Source of the DNA: an uncultured Lachnospiraceae bacterium
Lineage (GTDB): Bacteria; Bacillota; Clostridia; Christensenellales; UBA1242
Assembly (NCBI GenBank): GCA_964457935.1
Contig: CAYWFC010000001.1
Location: 1-45,819 of the forward strand
DNA length: 45,819 bases
Reading direction: 5' to 3'
Part shown: positions 596 to 45,819 of the stretch, piece by piece
How positions within the stretch are numbered: the stretch's first letter is position 1
How the letters are laid out: the number at the start of each line of letters is the position of its first letter
The notes under the pieces: model-generated
What the model saw: the letters and a program-made list of their open reading frames with translations, nothing else
What the model was told of the DNA's origin: nothing
Database searches by the model: none
Program-made: the position numbers and the translations under genes

Positions 596-671
596 ATTTA
601 GAATAACTGATTTTTGTGTAGGTCAAAGACATTTAGAATAATTGATATTTGTATTAGAATAATTGCTTCTC
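596..671. repeat. Degenerate echoes of the nrnA 3' end
   Basis: ATTTAGAATAACTGAT (596), ATTTAGAATAATTGAT (631) and ATTAGAATAATTGCTT (652) form the series. The last copy is the true CDS end (TTA at 654-656 = TAA on the minus strand). Confidence 0.6.
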
Positions 672-1649
672 GTCTGGGTCAGAGGTGAGTTCGTCTGTCT
701 CTGTCCTGATGAATTCCAAGACTTGCTGTTCGAGGTCTCTGATCTCGCCTTCGTACTGGAAGGCAGCGACTGTAGCGCTACCACCTCCGCCGAAACGGCT
801 AGCGATGACGGACACGTCTACATCTGAGCCTTTGCCACGCAGGCTGGCGTAGATGAAGTTTGGTTCTTTTTCGATGAGGGATACTGATATCTTAACCCCA
901 TCTATAGCCATACCCTTATCCACCAGACCCATAGTATCCTCGAATGCGAGTCCATTTCGGTCGAGGTCATTGCGGGTAATCTTCATCATAGCCACAGTGT
1001 CGTTGTGGTGCAGTTTGATAGACCCGAGCGCCTTGGCTTCCAGTTTGGTCTTGCCGAGTGACTGGCTACCGAAGTAGTACTCTTTGATAAGGTTGGCGTT
1101 GAATTTATATGCCAGCAGATCACTCAGCACTTGGTGTGTCTTTTGCGTCATAGTGCTGGATGTGAAGCAATTCGTATCTGTCAAAATGCCCTGATAGAGC
1201 AATTTCGCTATATCTTTGTCAATGACTAGGTTAGACGCCTTAGCCAGCAGGTACACAAACTCGCACGTGCTGGACACCTCGGTCGAAGCCCAGTTGACTT
1301 CGGCAAACTTGGTGTTCGTGCCATGGTGGTCTATATTCACTGTGTGGGGGATTTTCTCCGCCAGCTCGCGGTATTTGCCTATGCGAGAGATATCTGGGCA
1401 GTCGAGTATGATAGCCAGGTCGTAGCTCGCGAATGGCGACGGATTCACCACATTGTCGCGCAATATAGGGGTATATAGATTGCCTATCTCGCCGTCAGTG
1501 AAGACGTCTACATATTTGTCATCAAAATTATTCCTAATTATTTCTTTTAGCGCTATGGATGAGCACAGCGCGTCTGCGTCTGGATTGACGTGTGAGAATA
1601 TTGCTATTTTTACAGATTCGTCTATTAGTTTCATTAAGTTATTAGCCAT
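654..1649 (-). CDS. nrnA: DHH/DHHA1 phosphoesterase, NrnA-type oligoribonuclease/pAp phosphatase
   Basis: The ORF is 331 aa. DHH motifs IFSHVNPDADALCS and NIDHHGTN are present, with a DHHA1 glycine motif FGGGGSATVAA. AAGGAG lies just upstream of the ATG. Confidence 0.85.
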   Translation of the reverse strand: MANNLMKLIDESVKIAIFSHVNPDADALCSSIALKEIIRNNFDDKYVDVFTDGEIGNLYTPILRDNVVNPSPFASYDLAIILDCPDISRIGKYRELAEKIPHTVNIDHHGTNTKFAEVNWASTEVSSTCEFVYLLAKASNLVIDKDIAKLLYQGILTDTNCFTSSTMTQKTHQVLSDLLAYKFNANLIKEYYFGSQSLGKTKLEAKALGSIKLHHNDTVAMMKITRNDLDRNGLAFEDTMGLVDKGMAIDGVKISVSLIEKEPNFIYASLRGKGSDVDVSVIASRFGGGGSATVAAFQYEGEIRDLEQQVLEFIRTETDELTSDPDEKQLF

Positions 1650-1670
1650 ATTATCTCCTTAACACTGACT

Positions 1671-1699
1671 ATTGTACCACATATTGCACATTTTGTCAA
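1671..1699 (-). promoter_or_regulatory. Sigma-70-type promoter for nrnA
   Basis: The minus strand reads TTGACA-17 nt-TACAAT, with TGg extending the -10. The SD and ATG at 1649 follow. Confidence 0.6.
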
Positions 1700-1846
1700 T
1701 AGGTGGCAAGCATTGATAAGGTGTGGGGTGGTAGTATTTGTGCGTGATAACGTGCTCAGGTGCAAAAGTCCTGTCCATTTTGCGCACAGTGTCTGAATAT
1801 GTGTGATACAAAAATCCACCACACATTCGTGGTGGATGTAGAGCGT

Positions 1847-2098
1847 ATTAGTGCTCATTCAGCAGTTAAGGTAGAACATATTAGTAATGCCCATTCAGCA
1901 GTTTGAAGATAAAGCAGATTTGTAATGCTCATTCAATAGTTAAGGTAGAGCAGATTTGTAATGCTCATTCAATAGTTAAGGTAGAGCAGATTTGTAATGC
2001 TCATTCAATAGTTAAGGTAGAGCAGATTTGTAATGTTCATTCAGCAATTAAGGTAGAGTGTCTTAATAATTCTCGTTCAGTAGTTTGAAGTATGCCTG
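1847..2098. repeat. 36-bp tandem repeat (~7 units) derived from the rubrerythrin 3' end
   Basis: The unit is ATTTGTAATGCTCATTCAATAGTTAAGGTAGAGCAG, with three identical central copies and diverged outer copies. The last unit is the real rbr C-terminal codons plus stop (TTAATAATTCTCGTTCAGTAGTTTGAAG). Confidence 0.9.
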
Positions 2099-2605
2099 TG
2101 GGTGCTCGCACACTGGGCACACAGCAGGGGCTTTCTTGCCGACGCAGATGTGTCCGCAATTCATACACTGCCACACGCAGTCGCCGTCCTTTGAGAACAC
2201 TAGGTCACCCTTGACATTGGCGAGCAATCTCTTGTAGCGCTCCTCGTGGGCTTTCTCTATCTTGCCCACCTCGTCGAAAAGATATGCTATCCTGTCGAAG
2301 CCTTCCTCGCGGGCGGTCTGAGCAAACTGTGCGTACATGTCTGTCCATTCGTAATTCTCGCCGTTCATGGCGTCCTCGAGATTGTCAATAGTGCTAGGCA
2401 CTGCTCCGCCATGCAGTAGTTTGAACCACATCTTGGCGTGCTCTTTTTCGTTATCCGCCGTCTCCAAGAATATCTCTGCTATCTGTTCGTAGCCGTCTTT
2501 GCGCGCTTTGGATGCGTAATATGTATATTTATTGCGCGCCTGCGACTCGCCAGCGAATGCTGTCATTAGATTTTGTTCTGTTTTTGTTCCTTTTAATTCT
2601 TTCAT
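2063..2605 (-). CDS. rbr: Rubrerythrin
   Basis: [42 protein letters not shown] is a diiron ferritin-like domain. A C-terminal rubredoxin-like CxxC...CPVC follows. The start is set at ATG 2605, after AAAGGAGAA; the track's longer ORF starts upstream at 2638. Confidence 0.9.
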
Positions 2606-2657
2606 TGTTTTCTCCTTTTGACAGAGATATTGTACCAAATTTTCGGCGCCGAGGCAA

Positions 2658-3269
2658 TCAATATACCAGTATTATAAGAAAATTCTTTAGTACGCACATA
2701 GTGATCGCCTCTGCCAGCACGCAAAACGCGAACAGCGCGAAGATATTGACCGTACAGTACGACCGATGCATACATTCGCGGAAATATCTCCCACTCTGCG
2801 CGCAAATATCGAGACTATTCACCGTCAGCCAGCAGAAAAGCGCAATGTACGCCACCGAGAACGCCAGCAAGCACAGAAACAATATGAGCGAATTGATGAA
2901 GCCATAGCACAGTAGCAGGCTGACTATAGTGATAATCCTAGCATATATGTAATACATCAAGAATACCACCCCGAGCGGTCTGCACCACACCGAGCCAAAA
3001 GTCACGAACACCACTCCCACGAATAGCGCAGTGGAGAGTAGATTGGACGCAAGCATCATGGCGAAATTGGTGCTACCTTTGAGATAATTTAGGAATGCGA
3101 CATTGGAGAAACTGACAGGCAGTACGCCGTTGTAAAACTTGATAGCCGATATCAGCCCAGTGAATGCCGACACCGCGACTATAAACAACGCAAAACACAG
3201 CCACGCCTTGTGCCTAGCCCACGCCGAACCTAGCCTGTATGTATTCGCCTTGATATCAAATCTTCTCAT
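2658..3269 (-). CDS. Polytopic membrane protein, function unknown
   Basis: The ORF is 203 aa and strongly hydrophobic, with about 5-6 predicted TM segments. There is no SD. The minus-strand TATATT box sits 6 nt before the ATG at 3269, so the mRNA may be leaderless. Confidence 0.6.
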
Positions 3270-3492
3270 CAATACAATATATGTCGCATTTTGACTAAAT
3301 AGAAATATTTCGTATACATCTATCGGCTAAATGGGAATATTTTTGCATTTATATAATGTACATCACTTTTTGATTAGACGATATACATATATTATCGTTT
3401 TGACTAATTTTGACTGTACGATATACATATACTACCTTTGACTAAATAGAAATAATACTCGCTGACCGTCAAAATATTGGACAATCACGCAC

Positions 3493-3582
3493 ATTTAGGA
3501 TATAATATATAGGTGATTTATGTTCGCGAGGGGGATTAGATATCCACTTTGCATTAGGGATATAATATATAGGTGATTTATG
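3493..3582 (+). repeat. 60-bp direct duplication of the promoter -10/SD/ATG of the SDR gene
   Basis: ATTTAGGATATAATATATAGGTGATTTATG (3493-3522) and ATTAGGGATATAATATATAGGTGATTTATG (3553-3582) are near-identical. The second ATG (3580) is the real start. Confidence 0.85.
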
Positions 3583-4311
3583 AGAAAAACAGTACTTATT
3601 ACGGGCGCATCGCGTGGCATAGGCAGAGCGATAGCGGTGAAATTCGCGCAACATGACTACAATGTGGTCATCAATTACTGCCATTCGCGCGAGAGTGCCG
3701 AGAGATTGGCTGACGTACTGCGTGAGCAAAATCCTAACATTATGACAGTGTGTGCTGACGTGTCAGATGTGGTACAGGTGGAGAAAATGCGCGCCGACAT
3801 CGCTGAGCGCTTCGGCGGTGTGGATGTGCTGGTCAACAATGCTGGCGTGTCGCTCGAGAAACTGCTGATAGACACCACTGCTGACGAATGGAATGCAATA
3901 TTGTCCACCAATCTCACATCAGTGTACCACACCACTCACACTTTTTGCCCACATATGATTAGTCAAAAATATGGCAAGATAGTCAACGTGTCGTCCATTT
4001 GGGGCGAGCGCGGTGCGAGTGTGGAGGTGGCATATAGCGCGAGCAAAGGCGGAGTGATAGCATTCACCCGAGCACTGGCGAAAGAACTAGCCCCTAGCCA
4101 CGTGAACGTGAACTGCGTCTGCCCGGGCGTGATAGACACAGATATGCTAAATGCGTATACCGATGACGAGAAAGCCGACCTGGTCGCTCGCACGCCGTTG
4201 GGGAGACTAGGCACACCAAAAGACATCGCCGACGCAGTGTATTTTTTGGCAAGCGACGAAGCAAATTTCATCAGCGGTCAAGTACTGACAGTGGATGGAT
4301 TGTTTGAATAA
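3580..4311 (+). CDS. SDR-family oxidoreductase (3-oxoacyl-ACP reductase FabG-like)
   Basis: Motifs are TGASRGIGRAIA (cofactor binding), NNAG, and the YSASKGG catalytic Y-x3-K. Length is 243 aa. The SD is AGGTGA. Confidence 0.9.
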   Translation: MRKTVLITGASRGIGRAIAVKFAQHDYNVVINYCHSRESAERLADVLREQNPNIMTVCADVSDVVQVEKMRADIAERFGGVDVLVNNAGVSLEKLLIDTTADEWNAILSTNLTSVYHTTHTFCPHMISQKYGKIVNVSSIWGERGASVEVAYSASKGGVIAFTRALAKELAPSHVNVNCVCPGVIDTDMLNAYTDDEKADLVARTPLGRLGTPKDIADAVYFLASDEANFISGQVLTVDGLFE

Positions 4312-4448
4312 ATAATAATTTCATCAACTGACAAATATAAAGTATTAGAATAAATAAAAGTTTTATCAGTGGACAAGTATGGAGTATTAGAATAAATAAA
4401 AATTTTATCAGCAGGCAAGTATGGATTGTTTGGATAAATATATAAAAA
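4267..4448. repeat. ~42-bp echoes (3 copies) of the SDR gene 3' end including its stop
   Basis: The CDS end is TCATCAGCGGTCAAGTACTGACAGTGGATGGATTGTTTGAATAAATA. It is followed by TCATCAACTGACAAATATAAAGTATTAGAATAAATA, then TTATCAGTGGACAAGTATGGAGTATTAGAATAAATA, then TTATCAGCAGGCAAGTATGGATTGTTTGGATAAATA. Confidence 0.8.
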
Positions 4449-4774
4449 ATAAAATTATATTTAGATAATTTTCTGAAAAATTTAATAATTTTCAAAAAAA
4501 TGCGAAAAAAATCCAAAAAATGCAAAAAAAGTAGAAAAAATAGCAAAAAATTCATATTTTTTATCATTTTTGACTATTTTAACGAAAAATGCGATTGACA
4601 ATTTTTACCATATATGTTATCATTCCGATGACGCTAGAATAAATATGTGCTAGAAAATAACAATATTTTTTTAGATAGTTTTGTATCATCTTCGCCAGCA
4701 GTGAGTGCAATATGGTGGACATATGATTGCCTCATGAGAAGAATAACTAACGCAACAAATAAAACTATCGCAAC

Positions 4775-4809
4775 AAAAAATCCTATGATATAGCTCATAG
4801 GATTTTTTT
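4775..4809. terminator. Bidirectional rho-independent terminator
   Basis: The sequence is AAAAAA-TCCTATGA-tatagc-TCATAGGA-TTTTTTT. It lies immediately 3' of the minus-strand CDS ending at 4812. Confidence 0.7.
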
Positions 4810-4811
4810 GA

Positions 4812-5413: not shown

Positions 5414-5490
5414 GGCGGTGTGGCTTAGGTGGTTAGAGCGAACGATTCATACTCGTTAGGTCATAGGTTCGAGTCCTATCACCGCTACCA
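5414..5490 (+). tRNA. tRNA-Met (anticodon CAT), elongator-like; an Ile2/lysidine identity cannot be excluded
   Basis: I folded the cloverleaf by hand. The acceptor is GGCGGTG/CACCGCT, the D arm GCTT-AGGTGGTTA-GAGC, the anticodon arm AACGA-TTCATAC-TCGTT and the T arm ATAGG-TTCGAGT-CCTAT. The discriminator is A and CCA is encoded. Length is 77 nt. Confidence 0.9.
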
Positions 5491-5525: not shown

Positions 5526-5600
5526 GGTCCCATGGTCAAGCGGTTAAGACACCGCCCTTTCACGGCGGTATCAGGGGTTCGATTCCCCTTGGGACTACCA
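5526..5600 (+). tRNA. tRNA-Glu (anticodon TTC)
   Basis: GGTCCCATGGTCAAGCGGTTAAGACACCGCCCTTTCACGGCGGTATCAGGGGTTCGATTCCCCTTGGGACTACCA closely resembles bacterial tRNA-Glu. The anticodon loop is CTTTCAC and CCA is encoded. Confidence 0.92.
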
Positions 5601-8427: not shown

Positions 8428-10251
8428 ATGACCAACGAAAAAATCAGAAATGTAGCTATCATTGCCCACGTAGACCATGGCAAGACCAGCCTAGTCAACG
8501 AAATGCTGAAGCAGGGCAATGTTTTTCACGAAAATCAAGTGGTAGAGGACAGAGTAATGGACTCCAACGCCATAGAGCGTGAGAGAGGCATCACCATACT
8601 CGCAAAGAACGCCAGCTGTATGTACAACGGTGTGAAAATCAATGTAGTAGACACCCCCGGACACGCAGATTTCGGCGGAGAAGTGGAGCGCGTGCTGAAA
8701 ATGGTGGACGGCGTATTGCTGGTAGTAGACGCATTCGAGGGCACTATGCCACAGACGCGTTTCGTGCTAGAAAAGGCGCTCGCACTCAACCTGCGCGTAG
8801 TGGTAGTCATCAATAAAATCGACCGCCCAGACGCACGCCTAAAAGAAGTAAAAGACGAAGTGCTAGAGCTCCTCATGGACTTAGACGCGAATGACGAACA
8901 GCTGGACAGCCCGTTCGTGTATTGCTCCGCGCGCAACGGCACTAGCAGTCTATCAGAAGGCGAAGTAGGCACAGATATGCGTCCGCTGTTTGAGACTATA
9001 CTCAGCCACATCCCAGCACCAGAGGGGGACGAGAGCGCACCGTTCAAGATGCTGGTGTCGTCAGCCGAGCACAATGATTATCTCGGCAAACTGGTAGTGG
9101 GCAAAATCACTGCCGGCAAGGTCAAACTGGGCGACAACATAGTAGTGACCAATTACCACGAGCCAAAGAGCGTCAATGGCAAGATACAGCAGATATTCGC
9201 ATACAAAGGCTTGCAACGCGTGCAGGCAGACAGCGCCGAAGTGGGCGACATAGTGTGCCTCGCTGGTCTGGACAACTGTCTCATAGGCGACACTGTCAGC
9301 AGTCGTGAGGACGCCACCCCTATCGAGTTTGTAAAGATAGACCCACCTACTGTGGAGATGACATTCCTAGTGAACGACAGCCCGTTCGCTGGCAAAGAAG
9401 GCAAATACGTGACCAGCAGACACTTGCGCGAACGCCTATACAAAGAAGCCATAAAAGACTTGTCCCTGCGCGTGACTGACGGCGAGACTAGCGAGAGCTT
9501 CAAAGTATGCGGACGCGGTGAGATGCACTTGTCTATCCTGATAGAGAATATGCGTCGCGACGGGTATGAGTTTCAAGTCAGTATGCCACGCGTATTGCTC
9601 AAAGAAATAGACGGCAAACTGTGCGAGCCTATAGATATACTGTACATCGACGTGCCAAAAGACTGCGTCGGCTCTGTCATCACTCGTATGGCGAATAGAA
9701 AAGGCGAACTCATATCTATGGACGACCACAATAGCCGTATGAAATTGAAATTTTATATCCCAGAGCGCGGATTGTTCGGCTTCAAATCCGAATTCCTGAC
9801 CGACACTCGTGGTGAAGGCGTGATGAATAACATTTTCCACGAATACCAGCCACACAAAGGCACTATCCGCCGTAGAGAGTTTGGCTCGCTCATCGCGTGC
9901 GAGACTGGCGACGCTGTGGTGTATGGCTTGTACAATGCTCAAGATAGAGGCGACCTATTCATTACCCCGGGCACTGCTGTGTACGAAGGTATGGTGGTAG
10001 GCCAAAATCCTAAAGGCGACGATATCCCAGTCAATGTGTGCAAGAAAAAACACCTGACCAATATGCGTAGTAGCAGTAGCGATGAGGCTCTCAGACTCAT
10101 CCCTGTCAAAATGCTGAATATAGAGGAGAGCCTGGAATTCCTAAACGACGACGAGTACCTCGAAGTCACTCCAAAAAACTTGCGCATACGCAAAATCCTG
10201 CTCACTAACGACGAACGTCTGCGCCAAAAGGCTAGAATGAGTAGACAATAA
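8428..10251 (+). CDS. typA: Translational GTPase TypA/BipA
   Basis: MTNEKIRNVAIIAHVDHGKTSLV (G1), DTPGHADFGGEV (G3) and NKIDR (G4) are present, with an EF-G-like domain order. The start is set at ATG 8428 after AAGAGGAAA; the track ORF begins at an upstream GTG. Confidence 0.95.
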   Translation: MTNEKIRNVAIIAHVDHGKTSLVNEMLKQGNVFHENQVVEDRVMDSNAIERERGITILAKNASCMYNGVKINVVDTPGHADFGGEVERVLKMVDGVLLVVDAFEGTMPQTRFVLEKALALNLRVVVVINKIDRPDARLKEVKDEVLELLMDLDANDEQLDSPFVYCSARNGTSSLSEGEVGTDMRPLFETILSHIPAPEGDESAPFKMLVSSAEHNDYLGKLVVGKITAGKVKLGDNIVVTNYHEPKSVNGKIQQIFAYKGLQRVQADSAEVGDIVCLAGLDNCLIGDTVSSREDATPIEFVKIDPPTVEMTFLVNDSPFAGKEGKYVTSRHLRERLYKEAIKDLSLRVTDGETSESFKVCGRGEMHLSILIENMRRDGYEFQVSMPRVLLKEIDGKLCEPIDILYIDVPKDCVGSVITRMANRKGELISMDDHNSRMKLKFYIPERGLFGFKSEFLTDTRGEGVMNNIFHEYQPHKGTIRRREFGSLIACETGDAVVYGLYNAQDRGDLFITPGTAVYEGMVVGQNPKGDDIPVNVCKKKHLTNMRSSSSDEALRLIPVKMLNIEESLEFLNDDEYLEVTPKNLRIRKILLTNDERLRQKARMSRQ

Positions 10252-10460
10252 TAGACCTTGTCCGCCCTGAATGTAAATAGTGCGACAAATGTAGTCTCTA
10301 TTAGACATAAATGCAAACGATTACATAAGTGCAGTCTTTATCAGACCTAAATGCAGATGATGAGACCGATATAGACCTTGTCTAAATATAAGTGATGAGA
10401 CTAGTATAAACCTCATCTAACCTATGTGTAAATAATAAGATAATATTTATTAGATATAGA
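10237..10460. repeat. Degenerate echoes of the typA 3' end
   Basis: ATGAGTAGAC..ATAGACCTTGTC (the CDS end) recurs as GATGAGACCGATATAGACCTTGTCT and GATGAGACTAGTATAAACCTCATCT. AAATG(T/C)AG also recurs. The periodicity is loose. Confidence 0.5.
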
Positions 10461-10464
10461 CAAA

Positions 10465-10497
10465 CAAAAAACTTTGGCAGTGTGCCAAAGTTTTTTT
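10465..10497. terminator. Bidirectional rho-independent terminator between convergent genes
   Basis: AAAAAA-CTTTGGCA-gtg-TGCCAAAG-TTTTTTT. Confidence 0.8.
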
Positions 10498-11327: not shown

Positions 11328-11483
11328 TGTGGAAATGTGGATAACTTGGGTGAAATTGTCCACTTTTGCCTTGAAAATAAGGGATTTTGGGTATGTGGAT
11401 AGAATGTGGATAACATTTTTTGCGCGGTGGAAATGTGGAAATGTGGATAACTCTGTGGGTTGTTTTGTACAAAACGAAGTGGG
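11328..11483. promoter_or_regulatory. DnaA-box cluster remote from dnaA
   Basis: Perfect TGTGGATAA (= TTATCCACA) boxes lie at 11336-11344, 11405-11413 and 11442-11450. One-mismatch boxes are TGTGGATAG (11394-11402) and TTTGGATAA (11475-11483). Two-mismatch boxes lie at 11328, 11356 and 11434. Nearly all have the same orientation. Confidence 0.7.
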
Positions 11484-11591
11484 TTTTGGATAATTTTTTA
11501 GAACAAATATCAAACATTCGACAATTTGCACCACTTTTCGCTTGATAAAAAAGTGTGAGTGAGATAATATATACCTATTAGACGGAGTGTG

Positions 11592-11777
11592 ATGAACGAG
11601 AGAGATTTGTGCAGGCTGAGTGAGTATTTCGACGAGAGGATAGACTTGTCAGACTTTACGACGGAGGAACTAGAGGAAATGCTACAGGGCTTGCCGTCGG
11701 ACGAGAAGTTTAAGGACAATTATTTCGCGTATTACGATGACGTGAAGGACAAATCTCGCCCAAAACAAGACTGGTAA
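11592..11777 (+). CDS. Small acidic hypothetical protein (61 aa)
   Basis: ATG 11592 follows ACGGAG. The sequence is MNERDLCRLSEYFDERIDLSDFTTEELEEML... Its last codons plus stop (CAAGACTGGTAAAAGCA) are echoed about 60 nt downstream. I recognise no family. Confidence 0.4.
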   Translation: MNERDLCRLSEYFDERIDLSDFTTEELEEMLQGLPSDEKFKDNYFAYYDDVKDKSRPKQDW

Positions 11778-11966
11778 AAGCAGAGCCTATCTACCAAAAA
11801 CAGCAAAATCAGCTAAATACAAACAAAGCAAGACTGGTAAAAGCAAGTGAAATGCTCGCACTGAATGGATATTCGTGACAGATAAGTGTCTTAATAGTCT
11901 CTATAATGACAAAAATAATTGACATTAACATAATATTTGTGCTATCATCTAGTATAGAGGTAACAA

Positions 11967-12488
11967 ATGAAATATACTAAAATAACCAAAAAATTAGGTG
12001 GGATAGTACGTAGTATCTTTTGGGGATTTGTAATATTAGTACTTTTAGGCTTATCGGGTTTATTCGTCTGGTGCGATTTTAGTATGGCAAATCCTTTAGT
12101 AAGTTTTGTGTTGTTGGTGTGGATACCAGGGTTGTGCTATTCGGTAAATTATTGTATTAGTTTAATCGCGGGCGATGAATTGACGAATACTGGTATGGTG
12201 AGTGATGGCCATTCGGTATTTGACATAAAAAGAACACCAAAATACTATAGTAGAAGAATGATTTCGCACTTTGTAGGATGTATACTCTTTGTTTTATTAT
12301 TATTAAGGTATATGTTTTATTTGGGTTATCTTTGTATTATGTCTGCTTATTACTTGGTATTTTTCTTCGTGGGGGCAGTAGGTTCTGTGATCGGTGTAGT
12401 GGTTTGTTTCATATTCGGAATGAGTGCTTACGAGAAAAGTAGCCTAAAACAAAGAAAAGATAATGTGGATAATACTGAAATAAAATAA
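11967..12488 (+). CDS. Integral membrane protein, function unknown (AT-rich gene)
   Basis: The ORF is 173 aa with 4-5 TM segments. The SD is GAGGT. An upstream promoter reads TTGACA-18 nt-TATCAT. Confidence 0.65.
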   Translation: MKYTKITKKLGGIVRSIFWGFVILVLLGLSGLFVWCDFSMANPLVSFVLLVWIPGLCYSVNYCISLIAGDELTNTGMVSDGHSVFDIKRTPKYYSRRMISHFVGCILFVLLLLRYMFYLGYLCIMSAYYLVFFFVGAVGSVIGVVVCFIFGMSAYEKSSLKQRKDNVDNTEIK

Positions 12489-12569
12489 ATTGCACTAGAG
12501 AGCAAAATCTGCAAATCTTGCGACATATTAAGTGCCGGAATTTAGTTTAGTCAGATATCTATATAGATA

Positions 12570-12624: not shown

Positions 12625-12810
12625 TTAGTATTGCATATTGAATGGGAAGGATGAGAGTGAGCAAGAGCAATTATTCATACGCTCGATGAGTTCTTTCTTC
12701 TTCAGATAAGTAGACTCAGTGCCGTAGTGTTTGATGTCGAGCTCTTTTTCTTCTTCCTTCATCATTTTGTGTATGAGAGTGGTCCTGTCTTCTGTGTGGG
12801 AATATTTCAT
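12625..12810 (-). CDS. Small hypothetical protein (61 aa)
   Basis: A good AAGGAG SD precedes ATG 12810. The sequence is charged and helical (MKYSHTEDRTTLIHKMMKEEEKELDIKHY...). I recognise no family. Confidence 0.5.
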   Translation of the reverse strand: MKYSHTEDRTTLIHKMMKEEEKELDIKHYGTESTYLKKKELIERMNNCSCSLSSFPFNMQY

Positions 12811-12885
12811 AATGGGTATCTCCTTTTCGCTGACATATTAGCATACAATGTGAGCATTGTCAATAGTGAAAATGAAAAATATATT

Positions 12886-13178
12886 ATTATATCAAAGTCA
12901 TACTGGCATCCTTATAGCAAAATATATAATTCTGCAAAAGTTATACTGTCACACTTATAAAAACACATCGTTCTATCAAAGTCATACTGGTGCACTTGTA
13001 GCAAAATATATTATTTTGTCAAAGTAATATTGTCGCACTTATAAAGATAAATCATTCTGCCAAAGTCATACTGGCGCACTTGTGGCGGAAAATTATAATT
13101 CTATCAAAGTAATATTGTCAAATTTATAAACATACATTATTCTGCCAAAGTCATACTAGCGCACTTGGTGTATGCGCG
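12886..13178. repeat. ~42-bp tandem array (7 units) echoing the yigZ-like gene's 3' end
   Basis: Units resemble ATTCTGCCAAAGTCATACTGGCGCACTTGTGGCGG.... They alternate between better and worse copies. The last unit (13138 onward) is the real C-terminal codons plus stop. Confidence 0.85.
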
Positions 13179-13490
13179 GAGCAGTCCGCCAGCGCCTAGT
13201 TTGACCCCGCCGAAATATCTCACCACAACCACGAGAATGTCGCGGGCATTTTTGTGTTTGATGACATTGAGTATAGGGCGTCCTGCTGTACCGGATGGCT
13301 CGCCGTCGTCACTGCAACGCTCCACCACACCGTCGTCGCACAGAGTGTAGGCGTAGCATGTGTGAGTGGCTTTTTTGTGCGATTTGGCGAGAGTGGACAG
13401 TATATCCTTGACCTGCGCCTCGCTAGTCACGTGGTAGGCGTACCCGATGAATTTGGATTTCTTGATTTCGTACAAAACTTCTGTATGCAT
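13137..13490 (-). CDS. YigZ/IMPACT-family (UPF0029) N-terminal domain protein, short form
   Basis: EIKKSKFIGYAY, KATHTCYAY, DDGEPSGTAGRPIL and VVVVRYFGGVKLGAGGLLRAY match the YigZ N-domain. No second (C-terminal) domain is present. The start is uncertain: I chose ATG 13490 (TGgTATATT box 6 nt upstream, no SD), and the track ORF extends to TTG 13520. Confidence 0.75.
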   Translation of the reverse strand: MHTEVLYEIKKSKFIGYAYHVTSEAQVKDILSTLAKSHKKATHTCYAYTLCDDGVVERCSDDGEPSGTAGRPILNVIKHKNARDILVVVVRYFGGVKLGAGGLLRAYTKCASMTLAE

Positions 13491-13526
13491 ACGCATAATA
13501 TACCACATACTGCGCGTCAATGCAAA

Positions 13527-13690
13527 TGTCTGGCGGTTTTTGTGTCGAGATACAATCTAGATATATAATGACTTGGCTGGTTTAGTACTGAGACACAATC
13601 AAAACACATATTGGCTGGGCGGGTTTTGTAGCAAGACGCAATCTAGGTACATATTGGCTGGCGGTTTTGGTGTCGGGACGCATATCTGCG
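13527..13690. repeat. ~41-bp tandem repeat (4 diverged units) in the divergent intergenic region
   Basis: The series is TGTCTGGCGGTTTTTGTGTCGAGATACAATCTAG.., then GACTTGGCTGGTTTAGTACTGAGACACAATC.., then ATTGGCTGGGCGGGTTTTGTAGCAAGACGCAATCTAG.., then ATTGGCTGGCGGTTTTGGTGTCGGGACGCATATCT. Confidence 0.75.
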
Positions 13691-13724: not shown

Positions 13725-16334
13725 ATGTTTTTTTATAGCAAAGAGGAGGCGCTGGACAAGCTATCCAGTAGCGAGAGCGGGCTAGACAGTGCGCGCATAT
13801 CCGACCACAAGAAAAAATACGGTGCAAACAAAGTGGACGAGGCGAAGAAAGAGAGTGTATTCGTGGCTTTTTTGCGCCAATTCCAAAATCTGATGATTAT
13901 CATACTACTACTATCGGCAGGGGTGTCTATCACGCTGGCGCTGACTAGTGGTGAGTATGCGGACTTATTCGAAGGGTTTATCATACTCTTCATAGTGATC
14001 ATGAATGCCATAATAGGTGTCATCCAAGAGAACAAAGCGCAAGCCAGCCTCGCCGACCTGAAAAAGCACATAGTGCAGTACTCCAAAGTAGTGCGGAGCG
14101 GAGTGGTGATGCACATATCGAGCGACGAACTGGTAGTGGGCGACATAGTGTGTCTCGAGGCAGGCGACATAGTGCCGGCGGATTTGCGCCTAATAGAGAC
14201 GCATTCGCTGAAATGCGACGAGAGCAGTCTGACGGGCGAGAGTTTGCCGGTGGAGAAAAACGCCAATCTGATACTGAACAAGCACACTGCCATAAACGAG
14301 CAGAAAAATATGGCATTTAGCGGATGCAGTGTGAGTGCCGGCAGAGCCAAAGGCGTGGTGGTGGCAGTGGGCAATCAGACCGAGATAGGCAAGATAGCCA
14401 ATATGATATTCTCCACCAAAAAAGAGCAGACCCCACTCCAGAAATCACTCCAAAAGATAGGCAAAGTCATCACTATATCAGTGCTGGTGGTGTGCGTGGT
14501 GATATTCTTGCTCGAGATATTCTTCGCATCAGAGCGGAGCGTGCTCTCTGCACTCATGACGTCAGTGGCACTGGCGGTGGCAGCGATACCAGAGAGTTTG
14601 CCTGCCGTCATCACTATCATCATGGCTATGGGTGTGACCCAGCTCGCCAAGCGCAAAGTCATCATCAAGCAACTGCACGCCGTAGAGACGCTGGGGAGTT
14701 GCCAAGTGATTTGCTCGGACAAGACTGGCACTCTGACGCAAAACAAAATGACCCTGACCCACCTGTACCTAAATCTCGAGCGTTGCGAGGCAGACACTGG
14801 CACAGACGAGTACACGCACGCCATAAACTGTATGGCGCTGTGCAACGAATGCACTGTATCAAAAGGGGCTGTGCTAGGCGAGCCCACCGAAGTGGCATTG
14901 TACGAGTACGCTATGCCACATTTCGCACTCAAAAAGCACAAGCGACTGTTCGAACTCCCGTTCGACTCCACGCGAAAAATGATGACCACTGTGCACAGCA
15001 TAGGTGGCATAGTGAGTTATACCAAGGGGGCGTTTGATATGGTGATAGAGCGTTGCTCCACCATAAATATCCATGGCAAAATCCAAGCGCTCACTCCAGA
15101 CATTCGCCGACGCTTGCAAGCCATAAACAAAGAAATGGCGGACTCCAGCCTGCGCGTGCTGGCGCTGTGCTACAAAGCATACGACGAATACAATATGGAC
15201 GCTGACTTAGAGCGCGATATGACATTCCTGGGGCTGGTAGGCATGATAGACCCACCGCGTGTAGAAGTATATGACGCCATACAAAAATGCTTCTCTGCTG
15301 GGCTAAAGCCAGTGATGATCACAGGCGACCACAAAAACACCGCCTTTGCCATAGCGCGACGCCTGCACATAGCGGACAGCGAGAGCCAAGTCCTGACAGG
15401 CGAGCAGATAAACGCCATGAGTGATGCGCAGTTTGCACGCAAGGTAGGGGATTACACAGTGTTCGCACGCGTCACCCCTGAGCACAAGGTCAAGATAGTG
15501 ACCGCCATAAAAAAGCAGAGCAAAGTAGTGGCTATGACTGGCGACGGCATCAATGACGCCCCTAGCCTGAAAATAGCCGACATTGGCGTGGGTATGGGCA
15601 TATCGGGTACTGATGTGGTCAAAAATGTGTCAGATATGGTCATTACGGACGACAATTTTGCCAGCATAGTGGTGGCTGTCGAAGAAGGTCGAAAAGTGTA
15701 CAGCAATATCCAAAAGGCGCTACAATATTTGCTCAGCACCAATATGATAGAAGTAGTAGGTATGCTACTAGGGCTGATATTTTTCCCAAATGTGACATTC
15801 TTGACCGCGTCGCAGATGCTATTCATCAATCTCGTCACTGACAGCCTGCCGGCGTTCGCACTCGGGGTGGAAAAAGCCGAGAAAGACATCATGACTCGCG
15901 CCCCGCGCAGTAGCAGAGAGAGTGTATTTTCGCGCAGTGTCACTGTGGGCATAGTGTACCAGTCCATACTCCAGCTCATATGCGTGATGAGTGTGTATGT
16001 GCTGGCCAATATTTACGCTACGCCCGAGGTGGCGAACACTATGGTGTTCTTCACTATCATATTCGTGCAGACACTGCACAGCATCAATGCCAAGACGAAC
16101 GGCAGTATACTGGACATCAATATTTTCGAGAACAAGACATTCAATATTTGCTTCGTAGTCACCACAGCACTGAATAGCATAGTGGCATTCGTGCCTATCG
16201 TGAGACGGATGTTCGGCCTGTGCGCGCTGAGTGCGTCGCAATGGGTGTGGGTAATGGTGGCGTCGCTGGCTATCATCCCGAGCGTGGAGATAGTGAAATT
16301 GGTGCTGTATGGCAGAAATCGCAAAACTAAATGA
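13725..16334 (+). CDS. Cation-translocating P-type ATPase (Ca2+-ATPase, P2-type)
   Basis: Motifs are TGES, the phosphorylation site CSDKTGTLTQNKM, MITGDHKNTA and the hinge MTGDGINDAPSLK. About 10 TM segments are predicted. The start is set at ATG 13725 after TAGGAGA; the track starts at an upstream TTG. Confidence 0.95.
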   Translation: MFFYSKEEALDKLSSSESGLDSARISDHKKKYGANKVDEAKKESVFVAFLRQFQNLMIIILLLSAGVSITLALTSGEYADLFEGFIILFIVIMNAIIGVIQENKAQASLADLKKHIVQYSKVVRSGVVMHISSDELVVGDIVCLEAGDIVPADLRLIETHSLKCDESSLTGESLPVEKNANLILNKHTAINEQKNMAFSGCSVSAGRAKGVVVAVGNQTEIGKIANMIFSTKKEQTPLQKSLQKIGKVITISVLVVCVVIFLLEIFFASERSVLSALMTSVALAVAAIPESLPAVITIIMAMGVTQLAKRKVIIKQLHAVETLGSCQVICSDKTGTLTQNKMTLTHLYLNLERCEADTGTDEYTHAINCMALCNECTVSKGAVLGEPTEVALYEYAMPHFALKKHKRLFELPFDSTRKMMTTVHSIGGIVSYTKGAFDMVIERCSTINIHGKIQALTPDIRRRLQAINKEMADSSLRVLALCYKAYDEYNMDADLERDMTFLGLVGMIDPPRVEVYDAIQKCFSAGLKPVMITGDHKNTAFAIARRLHIADSESQVLTGEQINAMSDAQFARKVGDYTVFARVTPEHKVKIVTAIKKQSKVVAMTGDGINDAPSLKIADIGVGMGISGTDVVKNVSDMVITDDNFASIVVAVEEGRKVYSNIQKALQYLLSTNMIEVVGMLLGLIFFPNVTFLTASQMLFINLVTDSLPAFALGVEKAEKDIMTRAPRSSRESVFSRSVTVGIVYQSILQLICVMSVYVLANIYATPEVANTMVFFTIIFVQTLHSINAKTNGSILDINIFENKTFNICFVVTTALNSIVAFVPIVRRMFGLCALSASQWVWVMVASLAIIPSVEIVKLVLYGRNRKTK

Positions 16335-16519
16335 TACGCTTGCATACAAAATAAATTTCTGATATATTTTAGTCATAAATGATATGCTTGCATACATCTT
16401 GTTTGCGGACAACACGACCGCTGTGGCGTACGTGCGAGACGGACTAAAAAACAAGAAACATAGCGTGACCATACGCGTATTGTCTGGGACATTGTGTCTA
16501 GATTCATTCATTATTAGAT

Positions 16520-16547
16520 AAATCTGTGCTTCGGCGCAGATTTTTTG
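16520..16547 (+). terminator. Rho-independent terminator
   Basis: ATCTGTGC-ttcg-GCGCAGAT followed by TTTTTT. It lies about 190 nt after the ATPase stop. Confidence 0.75.
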
Positions 16548-16620: not shown

Positions 16621-16785
16621 GAGCAAAATATACATTTTTCTGCTATAATATATAAAGCCAAAGATATATTAGTGCTATGATATAGAGCCAAAGATACATT
16701 TTTCGCTATAAAATATAGAATGAAATATACATTTTTCGCTATAATATAGAACAAAAGACACATTTTTCGCCAAAATGTGCGCAAC
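16621..16785. repeat. ~33-bp tandem array (5 diverged units), each carrying a -10-like box
   Basis: The motif AAATATACATTTTTC(T/G)GCTATAATATA recurs five times. It contains TGCTATAAT / TGCTATGAT / CGCTATAAA / CGCTATAAT variants. The array lies directly upstream of the real promoter. Confidence 0.7.
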
Positions 16786-25234: not shown

Positions 25235-25274
25235 TAGAATAACTCCCTTAGCACCACCAAATAATAAAATATAT

Positions 25275-25319
25275 AAACAACCCCCATTTCGCATCGCAAA
25301 GTGGGGGTTGTTTTGTTTA
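25275..25319 (+). terminator. Rho-independent terminator hairpin; left copy of a 45-bp direct repeat
   Basis: AAACAACCCCCAtttcgcatcgcaaagTGGGGGTTGTTTTGTTTA has a 10-bp stem ACAACCCCCA/TGGGGGTTGT and a T-rich tail. It is 44/45 identical to 27662-27706. Confidence 0.8.
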
Positions 25320-25605
25320 GATACTATTTTTTATCACACCCTAGCAACGGACATTGAATTATTGCAAAATACAACTTTTTCAAATTTAATTATAAAAACA
25401 CAAATGAATGGCAGTGAATATTGACATTGTAACAAATTATATGTTATAGTCTAGTCAATGAGCAAATAACCAAATTGGCTTGCTATAATTATTAAATAAA
25501 AATCAACTATAATCTAACCTTTTATGTTAAGGTTGGTCAGTTATGTAAGTTAATCGCAATTATAGGTGATTAGCTTTTTTGTTGTAAAAAAATCAAGGAG
25601 GAAAA

Positions 25606-26205
25606 ATGGAAAAATTTACAATAAAGGCAAACAAATATTTAGATAGGGACATTTTGGGTTATTATAACTGCGAATATGTAGGCTATCACAAAAGTGGAAA
25701 CCCAGACTTTATTAACCACTTAAAAAATATGAACAAACAGCATAGCGAATTAGAACTGGTCAAAGATTTTATTGCTGTTTATGAAAAAGCAGTCAAAGAC
25801 ATTACGGAAATTACGCAAGGAAATACAGATTTTATGGTGTGTGTTATTCCAAGGTCAAAAGCAGAAAATCATTACGCTGTGTGCCAATTAATGTTTAGGA
25901 AAGCAATTTCTAGCGCAGTAGACAATCTCGGGTTGGAAAATGGATCAGATATAATCAAAAGAATAAAAGATACAAAAACTACACATAATTGGAGATTGGA
26001 ACACAATACAGGAGAAATGCCTTATCAAAACATTACACTAGACACATGTGAAATTAAAAAAAATGCAATTAATGGCAAGAATATTATTTTAGTAGATGAT
26101 GTTTATACTGCAAATGTTAATGTCGCTGAAGATTGCATTCAAACATTGTTGAATTTGGGCGCAAAAAATGTTATATTATATGTAATAGCAAAAACAAGAG
26201 AGTAA
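25606..26205 (+). CDS. ComF/phosphoribosyltransferase-fold protein (199 aa) with a divergent PRPP loop; candidate ShosT-like component
   Basis: The SD is a strong AAGGAGG. FMVCVIPRSKAEN and GKNIILVDDVYTANVNVAEDCIQTLLNLGAKNVILYVIAKT align by eye with ComFC/type-I PRTases (VPIPLS...; IILIDDLYTTGATL). The gene is AT-rich. Confidence 0.75.
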   Translation: MEKFTIKANKYLDRDILGYYNCEYVGYHKSGNPDFINHLKNMNKQHSELELVKDFIAVYEKAVKDITEITQGNTDFMVCVIPRSKAENHYAVCQLMFRKAISSAVDNLGLENGSDIIKRIKDTKTTHNWRLEHNTGEMPYQNITLDTCEIKKNAINGKNIILVDDVYTANVNVAEDCIQTLLNLGAKNVILYVIAKTRE

Positions 26206-26207
26206 AT

Positions 26208-27047
26208 ATGTCTTCGATATTGGCGTTAAAATTGTATGAAATGAAAAGACATGGCACGATAAAGTCCAATGCTATGTTTTGGCGCGATTTTTTTGATAAA
26301 GAGATGATAAAGGCTCTTGATATTAATTTAGAGTCATTAAAAAAAGAACTCCTAGAAAAAAGTTTGAGTGTAGTTTGTGCTTTTGATGACAATTTTCCGA
26401 ATATAAGCCAAAAGCTCAAACCCAGTGAAAGACCGTTTCTGTTTGTATACAAAGGTGATATAAATTTATTAAACGAAATAGATAATAATATTGCCGTAAT
26501 CGGTGTTTTGACCCCGACTCAAGATATCGTGACGAGAGAACAAAAAATAGTAAAAGAATTAGTAGAAAATAATTTAACTGTAGTTAGCGGACTGGCAAAA
26601 GGTTGCGATACTATTGCCCATAAAGTTTGCATAGACAATGGCGGAAGAACGATTGGCATTCTCCCTACATCTTTTGATAGTATATATCCAAAAGAGAACA
26701 AAAATCTGGTGGATGAAATAGTGAAAAATAATGGGCTAGTGCTAACAGAATATGTCAGTGAAGCAAAAAACAGATTTGATAAAATTAAAAGATTTATTGA
26801 CAGAGATCGACTGCAAGCAATGTTTGCAAAAGCTATAGTACTAGTAGCCAGTTTTGCGCAAGGAAATGGAGATAGCGGGTCTCGCCATGCGTTACAAAAA
26901 GCAAAAGAATATGGCAAAGCAAGATATGTCATGTTTGACAAAAAAACGGACATCAATGCACCAATCTTCGAATTGAATAAACAGCAGATTTTGGACGGGG
27001 CTACTATTTTGACAAATGTGACAATAAAGGAATTGTATCTAAAATGA
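26208..27047 (+). CDS. DprA/Smf-like Rossmann (SLOG) domain protein (279 aa); candidate ShosA-like component
   Basis: The start is set at ATG 26208, 2 nt after the upstream stop; the track's 26133 start overlaps gene A. PFLFVYKGDINLL, IAVIGVLTPT, TVVSGLAKGCDTIAHKVCIDNGGRTIGILPTSFDSIYPKENKNL, LVLTEY, FIDRDRL and GSRHALQKAKEYGKARYV follow the DprA Rossmann-domain motif order. Confidence 0.8.
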   Translation: MSSILALKLYEMKRHGTIKSNAMFWRDFFDKEMIKALDINLESLKKELLEKSLSVVCAFDDNFPNISQKLKPSERPFLFVYKGDINLLNEIDNNIAVIGVLTPTQDIVTREQKIVKELVENNLTVVSGLAKGCDTIAHKVCIDNGGRTIGILPTSFDSIYPKENKNLVDEIVKNNGLVLTEYVSEAKNRFDKIKRFIDRDRLQAMFAKAIVLVASFAQGNGDSGSRHALQKAKEYGKARYVMFDKKTDINAPIFELNKQQILDGATILTNVTIKELYLK

Positions 27048-27574
27048 TATACGTTGTTGATTTGGATGATACACTTGTTAATTCTACATTACTTAACAAT
27101 GATTCTTATAATTTTGCACTTGAACAGTATGGATTCGACAGAATAATAACTAATGAAAGAATTACGCGCCAAAAATTGGATTTTGTGGATAACTGCATCC
27201 TAAAAAAAATAGTACAATTAAAACAATATTACTTTACACAAGAATGGCTACCTTGCAGAGTTGTGTTAAATAATATTCTTATGAAGCGACTACAAGTCAA
27301 TAAAAGAGAAAATTGCTATCTATGGACTAAAGCAGACAAAGATAGAGCGTATAAAATAATTGATTATTGTAAATTAGATATGTTTTTTAATGATATCTTG
27401 TTTGATGATAAATTAAGTTTCTCTACATCAATACCCAAACTAAAAAAATCGACTAATTCAAATCAGATAATAATCTATGAAAACGACAAAAGCTTTTTCT
27501 TTAATGAGAATTGTAAAATAGTAGATCATATCAAAACTAATCTTTTTGACATCAATGCATATCTAATAGAATAA
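27044..27574 (+). CDS. HAD-superfamily phosphatase-like protein (176 aa)
   Basis: An ATGA overlap couples it to the DprA-like gene. The N-terminal MIYVVDLDDTLV is HAD motif I (DxDxT). LWTKA is a candidate motif II. The gene is very AT-rich. Confidence 0.7.
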   Translation: MIYVVDLDDTLVNSTLLNNDSYNFALEQYGFDRIITNERITRQKLDFVDNCILKKIVQLKQYYFTQEWLPCRVVLNNILMKRLQVNKRENCYLWTKADKDRAYKIIDYCKLDMFFNDILFDDKLSFSTSIPKLKKSTNSNQIIIYENDKSFFFNENCKIVDHIKTNLFDINAYLIE

Positions 27575-27661
27575 TATTTCATATTGCACCATGAAAAACT
27601 CGCTATAAAACGGGTGAACCAAAAAATATTTTACTAAAAAATAATGTACAGTCAAATAGTG

Positions 27662-27706
27662 AAACAACCCCCATTTCGCATTGCAAAGTGGGGGTTGTTT
27701 TGTTTA
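27662..27706 (+). terminator. Rho-independent terminator hairpin; right copy of the 45-bp direct repeat
   Basis: AAACAACCCCCAtttcgcattgcaaagTGGGGGTTGTTTTGTTTA differs from the left copy by a single loop substitution (C to T). Confidence 0.8.
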
Positions 27707-27719
27707 CATATTATTAATT

Positions 27720-27870
27720 TATAATATTTATTAGCTTTTTACTCAAGATTTTTTCTTAAGATTTTTGCTTTAATCTTTTATTTTAATTATTTCTTAAGAT
27801 TTTTGCTTTAGTTTTTTAGTTTAGTTCACTTTAGTTTTTTATTCTAGTTTTTTACTATGAAATTGATGAC
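27720..27870. repeat. T-rich degenerate echoes of the leuS 3' end
   Basis: TTCTTAAGATTTTTGCTTTA occurs twice. TTTAGTTTTTTA / TTTAGTTTTTTATT / CTAGTTTTTTACTATG form a series, and the last is the real leuS stop region. Confidence 0.5.
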
Positions 27871-34167: not shown

Positions 34168-34298
34168 TGTGGAAATGTGGATAAGTGAGATTCTCACGAA
34201 AAATCGCGTTATTTCTCCACACCGTCGGCAAAAAATTTATGTGGATAAATTGTGTCAAGATATACACAATCTGTCCACATTTTTTGTAGTTATCCACA
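34168..34298. promoter_or_regulatory. DnaA-box cluster (candidate oriC element)
   Basis: Perfect boxes are TGTGGATAA at 34176-34184 and 34240-34248, and TTATCCACA at 34290-34298. A one-mismatch box TTCTCCACA lies at 34213-34221. Two-mismatch boxes lie at 34168 and 34271. Both orientations are present. Confidence 0.75.
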
Positions 34299-37374: not shown

Positions 37375-37625
37375 AATAAATATCAAAAAAATAAAATAAT
37401 TAAAATAAAAAACGAAAATAAAATAAAAAATAAATAAAAATAATAAATCGGAAAATAAATAAAAAATAAATCGGAAAATAAATAAAAAATAAATCAAAAA
37501 AATAAATAAAAATAAAAAAAACGACAAAAAATAATTAAATAAAATATTTATCGCCCATATCTCAGCATAAAGCGAAGAATAAATAATAAATAAAAAATAA
37601 ATAAAATAAAAAAGCACATTTATCA
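37375..37625. repeat. Extremely A-rich (plus strand) low-complexity/tandem-repeat tract downstream of dnaA
   Basis: About 250 nt are almost free of G/C. The tract includes ATAAATCGGAAAATAAATAAAAA x2 plus a degenerate third copy. AATAATTAAAATAAA also echoes the dnaA stop region (TTGAATAATTAAAATAAA). Confidence 0.8.
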
Positions 37626-44687: not shown

Positions 44688-44908
44688 ACTCTTCTCCGTT
44701 TTGTTTTAGTATGGATAAAAATTCATCTTTTATGCAAAGTTGAATTTACGGCATTGCTTTGTGTTAATTTTGCTAAAAAGTGAATATTTTGCATAAAAAA
44801 TCAGTAATTTCGCGTAAAAATGTGCATTTTTGGGATAAAAAATGTATTTTTTCTATAATTCTATAATATTTTATTTGTTTTTTTATGAAAATTTGATATT
44901 ATATTAAT

Positions 44909-45730: not shown

Positions 45731-45768
45731 CTACAAAAAAATGTTCCACATGGAACATTTTTTTGTAG
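45731..45768. terminator. Bidirectional terminator with a 17-bp perfect stem
   Basis: CTACAAAAAAATGTTCC-acat-GGAACATTTTTTTGTAG. Confidence 0.8.
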
Positions 45769-45819
45769 TAGTAAGTAGTAGTAAGTAGTAGTAAGTAGTA
45801 GTAAGTAGTAGTAAGTAGT
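45765..45819. repeat. 10-bp tandem repeat GTAGTAGTAA x5.5, running off the window edge
   Basis: The copies are exact, starting from 45765. The array is truncated by the end of the window. Confidence 0.9.

Follow-up and report, generated by a model that had tools for sequence, protein, structure and literature searches.

Why do so many genes in one short stretch of a bacterial chromosome end in repeated copies of their own last codons? The stretch in question, referred to here as the window, is a 46-kb chromosomal segment (45,819 nucleotides [nt]; contig CAYWFC010000001.1) of an uncultured gut Clostridia (Christensenellales-like) bacterium, and all counts given for the window are limited to these 46 kb. 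A first-pass annotation had described tandem "echoes" of coding tails and stop codons behind the rubrerythrin gene rbr and a series of unrelated genes, and had raised the prospect of an undescribed mechanism that duplicates gene termini. Our analysis shows that the arrays represent an unusually dense but ordinary repeat expansion in one uncultured lineage, and not a new genetic system or function. We consider it likely that they are locus-specific minisatellites which arose by slippage or unequal exchange and were retained only where the genes stay intact.

Pfam matches in the window include nrnA, rubrerythrin, SDR, typA, yigZ, P-type ATPase, leuS, dnaN, queH, phosphoglucomutase, dnaA and holB, among others. 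Two sister lineages, A and B, were recovered by protein searches in Logan gut-metagenome assemblies. Lineage A comprises L161, L162, L167 and runs X1/X2, and lineage B comprises L163-L166 and L168-L176, whose samples are 100% identical to each other and represent one strain. In concatenated coding DNA, the window (W) is 89.0% identical to lineage A and 89.0% identical to lineage B, and the two sister lineages share 91.6%. A sequencing-run search with window positions 1400-2700 returned no matching run, and a 10-kb window query recovered only two gut-metagenome runs containing 6% of its words; these represent lineage A rather than the species of the window. Exact look-ups with the window's SDR and Rbr proteins returned no entry. 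The closest relatives in a genome-contig scan with typA were Clostridia metagenome-assembled genomes (MAGs) with at most 78% amino-acid identity, and those in a metagenome-contig scan with MBL reached at most 64%; both sets served as background controls only.

The rbr array and the frequency of gene-tail echoes

The rbr gene lies on the minus strand (2063-2605/2638, TAA at 2063-2065) and has a rubrerythrin Pfam match. Downstream of it, in the region 2095-1814, Tandem Repeats Finder (TRF) detected a 36-nt array at 1852-2085 with 5.7 copies, 89% matches and a score of 298. Together with the unit identity matrix, this resolves the repeat into a source unit (2059-2095, minus strand), made up of ~10 terminal codons with the TAA and a further 4 nt, followed by six echoes of 33-38 nt and one partial copy (1838-2058), in agreement with the roughly seven 36-bp units reported in the first-pass annotation. 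The C-termini of rbr, SDR and yigZ agree with those of homologues, so that the innermost units at these genes are genuine coding sequence, as had also been claimed. Filling the space behind the stop codon, the rbr array reaches up to the foot of a hairpin, a canonical intrinsic terminator (1814-1837, minus strand; ATCCACCAC-loop-GTGGTGGAT-TTTTT) that is kept in lineage B.

Comparison with the sister lineages places the expansion exactly. In lineage B, rbr reads ...AATTATTAA-TACAT-terminator, with 5 nt from the TAA to the hairpin and no array; relative to this arrangement, ~220 nt are inserted in the window precisely between the stop codon and the conserved hairpin. Lineage A carries an echo, TATATTACATTTTCAGACTAATAATGAGAA, immediately 3' of the stop codon, and its spacer is ~92 nt longer than that of lineage B. 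The outward decay of the units that had been described earlier proved wrong for rbr, SDR and typA. Units 2-4 of rbr are identical, and the unit closest to the coding tail is the distal unit 5 (68%), the adjacent unit 1 reaching only 54%; at SDR and typA, the echo most like the coding tail is likewise distal. The distal rbr unit of the window retains the sister-like CTGCTGAATGAG, whereas the coding tail of the window has itself since acquired a synonymous change there.

Folding of the rbr array gave an essentially unpaired centroid, and the sole stable hairpin was the terminator distal to the array. No G+C-rich hairpin with a T-tract was found within the arrays, which upholds the earlier statement that they are not terminators. 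A structured RNA within the arrays was considered and rejected, as there was neither an Rfam match nor a stable fold beyond the terminator; an Rfam 15 scan of the whole window at gathering score returned only two tRNAs. These are tRNA-Met (CAT) at 5414-5490 and tRNA-Glu (TTC) at 5526-5600, where the depth of the lineage A runs peaks sharply, these sequences being common to many organisms. Separately, in rubrerythrin homologues of 234-244 amino acids (P0123, P0124 and P0125) from other metagenomes, ~55-64 amino acids within the ferritin-like domain are duplicated in tandem, which could be a real in-frame event or an assembly artefact. We discarded the idea that the 244-amino-acid homologues P0123-P0125 represent read-through of the array, since their 64-amino-acid duplications are internal and the organisms unrelated.

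To quantify the echoes, we took from each gene a 45-nt tail, made up of the 33 nt that end with the stop codon and the 12 nt behind them, and aligned it locally with the 350 nt downstream of the same gene. The null came from pairing tails with the downstream regions of other genes, within the window or across records, and its 99th percentile was 26 within the window and 23 across records, and 160 related Clostridia loci with 1726 genes formed the control set. A score of at least 26 was reached by 8/34 window genes (24%), namely yigZ (66), SDR (38), rbr (35), ATPase (33), dnaA (32), nrnA (27), typA (27) and leuS (26), compared with 21/1726 genes (1.2%) in the related loci; at a score of at least 32, the corresponding counts were 5/34 and 4/1726. 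The enrichment suspected in the first-pass annotation therefore holds for the window against both the null and related taxa. The density of long-period arrays in the window, with 11 arrays covering 1621 nt, was the highest among the 81 sequences compared. Non-coding DNA makes up ~7.7 kb of the window (16.9%, compared with a median of 10% elsewhere), and the ~1.6 kb of arrays lie in this non-coding DNA or at gene edges, the coding regions being nearly array-free.

The arrays share the properties of minisatellites. Their units of ~10-100 nt run head to tail, with TRF periods of 36, 42/84, 43, 31-33 and 13/38; the copy numbers at rbr, typA, yigZ and SDR differ among W, A and B while the flanks are conserved; and the unit sequence is specific to each locus. 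Matches between the unit consensuses of different arrays were at the level of the shuffled null, and no second copy of a consensus was found elsewhere in the window. A shared motif or dispersed family was rejected on these grounds, and with no consensus common to several loci the arrays do not belong to families of the REP/BIME, MIRU or MITE type, in line with the earlier exclusion of REP elements. The same applies to CRISPR, as the units abut without spacers.

Arrays, scars and rearrangements elsewhere in the window

At SDR, the coding tail (..NFISGQVLTVDGLFE*, stop codon 4309-4311) is followed by three 42-nt echoes at 4317-4440, which TRF and alignment both delimit (whole feature 4264-4440, plus strand). 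Lineage B has a single full-length ~55-nt echo right after the stop codon, and lineage A has the same full-length echo in this position, as judged from its first 30 nt; the three echoes of the window differ from the ~55-nt sister echo by an 11-nt internal deletion. Further downstream, between SDR and the next gene, conservation with lineage B is higher in the block 4595-4810 than around it. With a near-consensus promoter at 4595-4623 and a terminator-like hairpin at ~4785-4810, the block is a candidate small RNA (sRNA) or leader, with only sub-threshold matches in Rfam.

At yigZ, the coding tail (stop codon 13137-13139) and six 42-nt echoes form seven units at 12875-13167 on the minus strand, with an 84-nt super-period composed of two 42-nt halves; lineages A and B have three units each. 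Members of this clade have a single-domain YigZ of 115-120 amino acids (window gene 13137-13520), without the C-terminal DUF1949 that Lachnospiraceae homologues of 219 amino acids possess. Truncation of yigZ by its own array was considered in view of these longer homologues, but was rejected, as 115-120 amino acids is normal in the clade and a tblastn extension through the array was not significant. One echo unit contains a 12/12 match to a sigma-70-type promoter, TTGACA-18-TATAAT (13092-13121, minus strand), which faces the downstream 61-amino-acid open reading frame (ORF) at 12625-12810. Judged by such matches, array units can give rise to promoter-like sites.

Behind typA (stop codon 10249-10251), about five degenerate echoes of 35-40 nt extend up to a bidirectional terminator at 10466-10496 (tail and echoes 10222-10460, plus strand). 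The spacer between stop codon and terminator grows from 22 nt in lineage B through ~100 nt in lineage A to 207 nt in the window, and the terminator is conserved. Lineage B has a 10-nt microrepeat, TAGAC-N5-TAGGC-N5-TAGGC, straddling the stop codon, which could have been the seed of the duplication. In the distant relative L001, the typA terminator adjoins the stop codon, and one tail-spanning duplication of 119 nt is present at another gene.

Smaller arrays were found at three further genes. The nrnA tail CAATTATTCTAA (stop codon 654-656) is followed by two echoes, giving three copies with 21- and 35-nt spacing (598-684, minus strand), and this echo is absent from lineages A and B. An A-rich 13/38-nt array runs from the last codons of leuS (stop codon 27844-27846) toward the terminator at 27662-27700 (array 27731-27856, minus strand) and is absent from lineage B. 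At dnaA, TRF and alignment detected A-rich low-complexity repeats from the stop codon onward (37366-37546, plus strand), which amount to a marginal echo. Between dnaN and a downstream 585-amino-acid gene, lineage B in turn carries a separate array of three 30-nt units (L164 8122-8211), where the spacer is 137 nt compared with 72 nt in the window, which has no array at this site; array formation is therefore not unique to the lineage of the window.

The window also contains two clusters of DnaA boxes. At 11336-11493, three perfect and two one-mismatch TTATCCACA boxes lie within 160 nt, and at 34176-34298 three perfect boxes accompany one with a single mismatch; the whole window has 29 matches with at most one mismatch, compared with 13.9 expected. 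From their sequence, the clusters could be oriC or DnaA-box clusters, and for the A-rich tract behind dnaA (37375-37610) a role as an unwinding element is conceivable.

Expansion is not confined to gene 3' ends, and promoter-side arrays grew in the same lineage. Upstream of SDR, the -10 box, ribosome-binding site and ATG are duplicated at a 60-nt period (3492-3522 and 3552-3582, 94% identical; plus strand 3492-3582), forming a start-codon echo in a region that is single-copy in lineage B. The divergent h204/SDR region contains two copies of a 40-nt duplication (3368-3445, plus strand) and is 144 nt shorter in both A and B, the window having two duplications and +144 nt in this region. The ABC transporter gene is preceded by ~4.5 copies of 31-33-nt units, each with a TATAAT-like box (16621-16770, plus strand); lineage B has one unit at this position, and the window has gained +138 nt. 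A 43-nt array of 3.2 copies occupies the divergent yigZ/ATPase promoter region (13531-13667, plus strand) and differs in form and length in lineage A, and a further promoter-region array lies at 44767-44852. The specificity for gene termini that had been proposed is thus contradicted. Near the window's end, at 45765-45819, a perfect GTAGTAGTAA decamer repeat of at least 5.5 copies begins 65 nt after a PNP-family gene and runs off the edge.

Two of the loci listed in the first-pass annotation are of a different kind. Recurrence of the arrays was verified at SDR, yigZ, typA, nrnA and leuS and is marginal and low-complexity at dnaA, but the copies at the ATPase and at a 61-amino-acid ORF are two-copy scars at deletion and insertion junctions, as read from the sequence comparison, unlike the multi-copy arrays. 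At the ATPase, two copies of the 21-nt TAAATGATAYGCTTGCATACA (16328 and 16376) span the TGA (16328-16396, plus strand). An M60-like peptidase gene is present between the ATPase and the ABC transporter in lineage A and intact in lineage B (921 amino acids), whereas the window has lost ~2.9 kb of it and retains only the last ~100 nt with the terminator (16397-16543, plus strand); the second ATPase-tail copy (16376-16396) abuts the deletion junction exactly. In sequence, this 21-nt copy looks like templated filler or the product of template switching. At the 61/62-amino-acid ORF, two copies of the 17-nt CAAGACTGGTAAAAGCA (11766 and 11829) span the stop codon (11766-11845, plus strand) at the left boundary of an insertion of ~790 nt (11783-12565) that is absent from A and B. 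The insertion contains a promoter-like site (11919-11948) and a 173-amino-acid ORF (11967-12488) with no match in Pfam or NCBIfam.

A duplicated flank of yet another type was found around the 25.3-27.7-kb cassette, as had been noticed earlier. Direct repeats of 62 nt (25267-25328 and 27654-27715), which are 90% identical and each contain a bidirectional terminator hairpin, enclose an island of low G+C content (25330-27650; 0.28-0.34 compared with ~0.48). Its ORFs at 25606-26205, 26133-27047 and 27044-27574 encode a ShosT-like phosphoribosyltransferase (PRTase; E=4e-12), a DprA-like ShosA (E=1e-52) and one 176-amino-acid protein, and by these matches the island encodes a Shosta-like defence pair. 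No integrase was seen at the island. In addition, a ~24.6-kb block (~600-25250), from nrnA through the gene of a 2014-amino-acid protein, is inverted relative to lineage B (L163/L168), in which nrnA and leuS are neighbours that converge at their 3' ends; each of the two breakpoints falls in a 3' intergenic region with echoes or repeats. Just beyond the left breakpoint, an ORF on the minus strand (1-222) runs off the start of the window; we take it to resemble the N-terminus of the RhuM family of mobile-element proteins.

Origin of the arrays

If the arrays arose by slippage or unequal exchange, a segment of 13-84 nt, starting within the last codons and ending just past the stop codon, would have been duplicated in tandem by mispairing of slipped strands at microhomologies or at small direct repeats already in place, and more slippage or unequal exchange would have added further units. 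The first copy would remain joined to the gene, leaving protein and stop codon unchanged, and later copies would fill the space from the stop codon to the original terminator as untranslated DNA. Interior units would be re-amplified and stay identical, while edge units would be old and drift. Duplications lying wholly within genes would be purged by selection, so that the survivors would accumulate in intergenic DNA and at gene edges; and as the ancestral spacers between stop codon and terminator were only 4-22 nt, any duplication tolerated at these sites necessarily took in the coding tail. Compared with its relatives, the lineage of the window has gathered a far larger number of such events.

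Several elements of this scheme are direct observations, namely the origin of the units in coding tails, the differences among lineages in presence and copy number, and the conservation of flanking genes and terminators. In place of a mechanism dedicated to gene termini, the sister lineages show the birth, expansion and loss of ordinary minisatellites. Slippage, which had already been among the candidates of the first-pass annotation, would fit the identical interior units, the insertions and deletions of whole units and the typA microrepeat in lineage B, and the arrays appear to be selectively neutral. Between lineages, array identity is ~70-76% with many insertions and deletions, compared with 89-92% in coding DNA; as coding-DNA identity among W, A and B is ~89-92%, the changes accrue on a between-species timescale.

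Other findings weigh against this explanation in its simplest form. We simulated uniform duplications on the gene maps of lineage B, with the sole filter that an event must not lie wholly inside a coding sequence and with promoter constraint left out of the model. In this simulation, 87% of random duplications fell inside coding sequence and ~17% of the tolerated remainder spanned a stop codon, whereas ~4/8 to 6/10 of the observed events did so (p ~0.03 to 0.003). This excess of tail-spanning events is ~3-fold, in a small sample whose classification into events is partly subjective, and simple neutrality may not be the whole story. It could stem from promoter constraint outside the model, from ascertainment or from a true bias, for instance if the polymerase stalls at terminator hairpins; there may therefore be a mild bias to 3' ends or terminators. 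Moreover, the distance tree has the form (W,(A,B)), so that the absence of an array in B is either a secondary loss, or the arrays of W and A are parallel gains. A polarity of gain is suggested by the compact state of more distant relatives, as seen in the position of the L001 typA terminator next to the stop codon and in the background echo rate of 1.2%. Finally, the exact number of the three identical rbr units depends on a single assembly.

The tail-spanning excess bears most closely on a refinement, rather than a strict alternative, in which the polymerase pauses at the foot of the terminator and the nascent strand re-anneals a few dozen nt upstream in the gene tail, so that the hairpin foot would set the distal boundary of the duplication and gene 3' ends would be true mutational hotspots. 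We regard this refinement as possible, but not as the probable course of events. The stop codons of rbr, typA and ancestral nrnA lay 4-22 nt from a terminator, their arrays end at or within a few nt of the stem, the hairpin is never duplicated, and the 21-nt copy of nearby sequence at the M60 junction is template-switch-like. However, these are 3 cases only, and with spacers as short as 4-22 nt an array that ends at the foot carries little information. As no hairpin adjoins the SDR or yigZ array, and as promoter-side arrays expanded equally in the same lineage, hairpin stalling is only a plausible refinement. The broader proposal, that a lineage-specific process preferentially seeds duplication at the junction of stop codon and terminator through hairpin stalling and re-priming in the gene tail, and leaves filler at deletion junctions, appears rather unlikely. 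If it were true, compact gene ends would be turned into 3' untranslated regions (UTRs) of 100-300 nt, which would provide a general and observable route to de novo long bacterial 3' UTRs, and possibly to promoters or sRNAs.

Two further readings assign the echoes to integration events or to function. Scars of insertion, deletion or integration, such as attachment-site (att) or target duplications that preserve a gene 3' end, would suit a subset of the loci, including the terminator-bearing 62-nt repeats at the Shosta-like island (25.33-27.65 kb), the ATPase copy at its deletion junction, the 61-amino-acid-ORF copy at its insertion edge and the breakpoints of the inverted ~600-25250 block. As an account of the arrays at large this is doubtful, given that those of rbr, SDR, yigZ, typA, leuS and nrnA are strictly head to tail, carry no cargo and differ from relatives by whole units only; an att-type duplication enclosing cargo was found only in the 62-nt repeats at the island. 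We consider it very unlikely that the arrays are selected elements, whether 3' UTRs acting in mRNA stability or ribosome-terminator spacing, binding sites for protein or sRNA, backup stop codons or extra promoters. They do lie in the transcribed 3' region upstream of the terminator, the promoter match in the yigZ unit faces an ORF, and the units upstream of the ABC gene carry TATAAT-like boxes. Against this, sister lineages have the housekeeping genes rbr, typA, nrnA and leuS without arrays, array sequences change more quickly than the neighbouring genes and terminators, no motif is common to the loci, and neither a stable structure nor an Rfam match was found. That the arrays are assembly artefacts of a MAG is highly improbable: the window does come from a single assembly in which three identical 36-nt units are open to miscounting, but most units differ by 10-45%, which assemblers do not invent, and homologous yigZ, SDR, rbr and typA arrays were recovered in independent Logan assemblies of the two other lineages from several samples. 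Locus-specific minisatellite expansion by slippage or unequal exchange accordingly remains our preferred explanation.

Relation to known repeats and significance

The arrays resemble bacterial minisatellites, or variable-number tandem repeats (VNTRs), in their head-to-tail units of 10-100 nt, their locus specificity, their gain and loss between relatives, their homogenised interiors and diverged edges, and their position mostly outside coding sequence. They differ from typical examples in their high density, unusual in a Clostridia chromosome (11 arrays per 46 kb, about a fifth of the non-coding DNA), and in that about half of them demonstrably derive from the last codons and stop codon of the adjacent gene; the variation observed in them is that between the lineages W, A and B. 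Mycobacterial MIRU and REP/BIME elements are dispersed families, with tandem 40-100-bp intergenic units some of which overlap flanking stop or start codons. In those families one consensus recurs at many loci, whereas each array of the window has its own sequence from its own gene.

Ehrlichia ruminantium, an obligate intracellular alphaproteobacterium, offers another parallel. Its repeat units are reportedly mostly larger (~150 bp), with a coding density said to be ~64%, compared with ~83% in the window, and Collins in 2005 and Frutos in 2006 are said to have tied these repeats to rearrangements and truncated gene copies as well. Non-coding tandem repeats in this species undergo active expansion and contraction (PMC10710844), and the likeness to the window consists in lineage-specific expansion and contraction in non-coding DNA, tied to long intergenic regions. 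A survey of 5374 prokaryotic genomes found that tandem repeats occur less often inside genes than behind stop codons and ahead of start codons (PMC12418385), but does not include the coding-tail-derived arrays or lineage-specific bursts that are both seen here. Borg extrachromosomal elements (Schoelmerich et al. 2023, PMC9879509) share with the window an independent origin of repeats at each locus, fast evolution, genome specificity and near absence from relatives. Borg repeats, however, are perfect, A-rich and recent, about half of them lie in ORFs as in-frame amino-acid repeats, and they belong to an element of an archaeal host, whereas the window arrays are imperfect, old, excluded from ORFs and situated on a bacterial chromosome with dnaA, dnaN and leuS; their units are 54-90% identical except for the three rbr copies, and no sizeable array was found within coding sequence. 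Arrays that begin inside gene ends, and the intergenic enrichment of prokaryotic tandem repeats, have already been described (PMC9879509, PMC12418385, PMC10710844), and what is notable here is the density, the demonstrable coding-tail origin of the units and the stepwise series across three lineages.

For practical purposes, such arrays account for spurious short ORFs and apparent "pseudo C-termini" in annotation, and they flag sites of possible copy miscounts in MAG assemblies. For the biology of this lineage, rbr provides a stepwise natural series, from a spacer of 5 nt with no array through one longer by ~92 nt to one longer by ~220 nt, which captures the birth of non-coding DNA beside bacterial genes. 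Collectively, these findings indicate that coding tails can supply raw material for 3' UTR sequence, that array interiors turn over while their edges fossilise, and that a single lineage is able to inflate many intergenic regions simultaneously.

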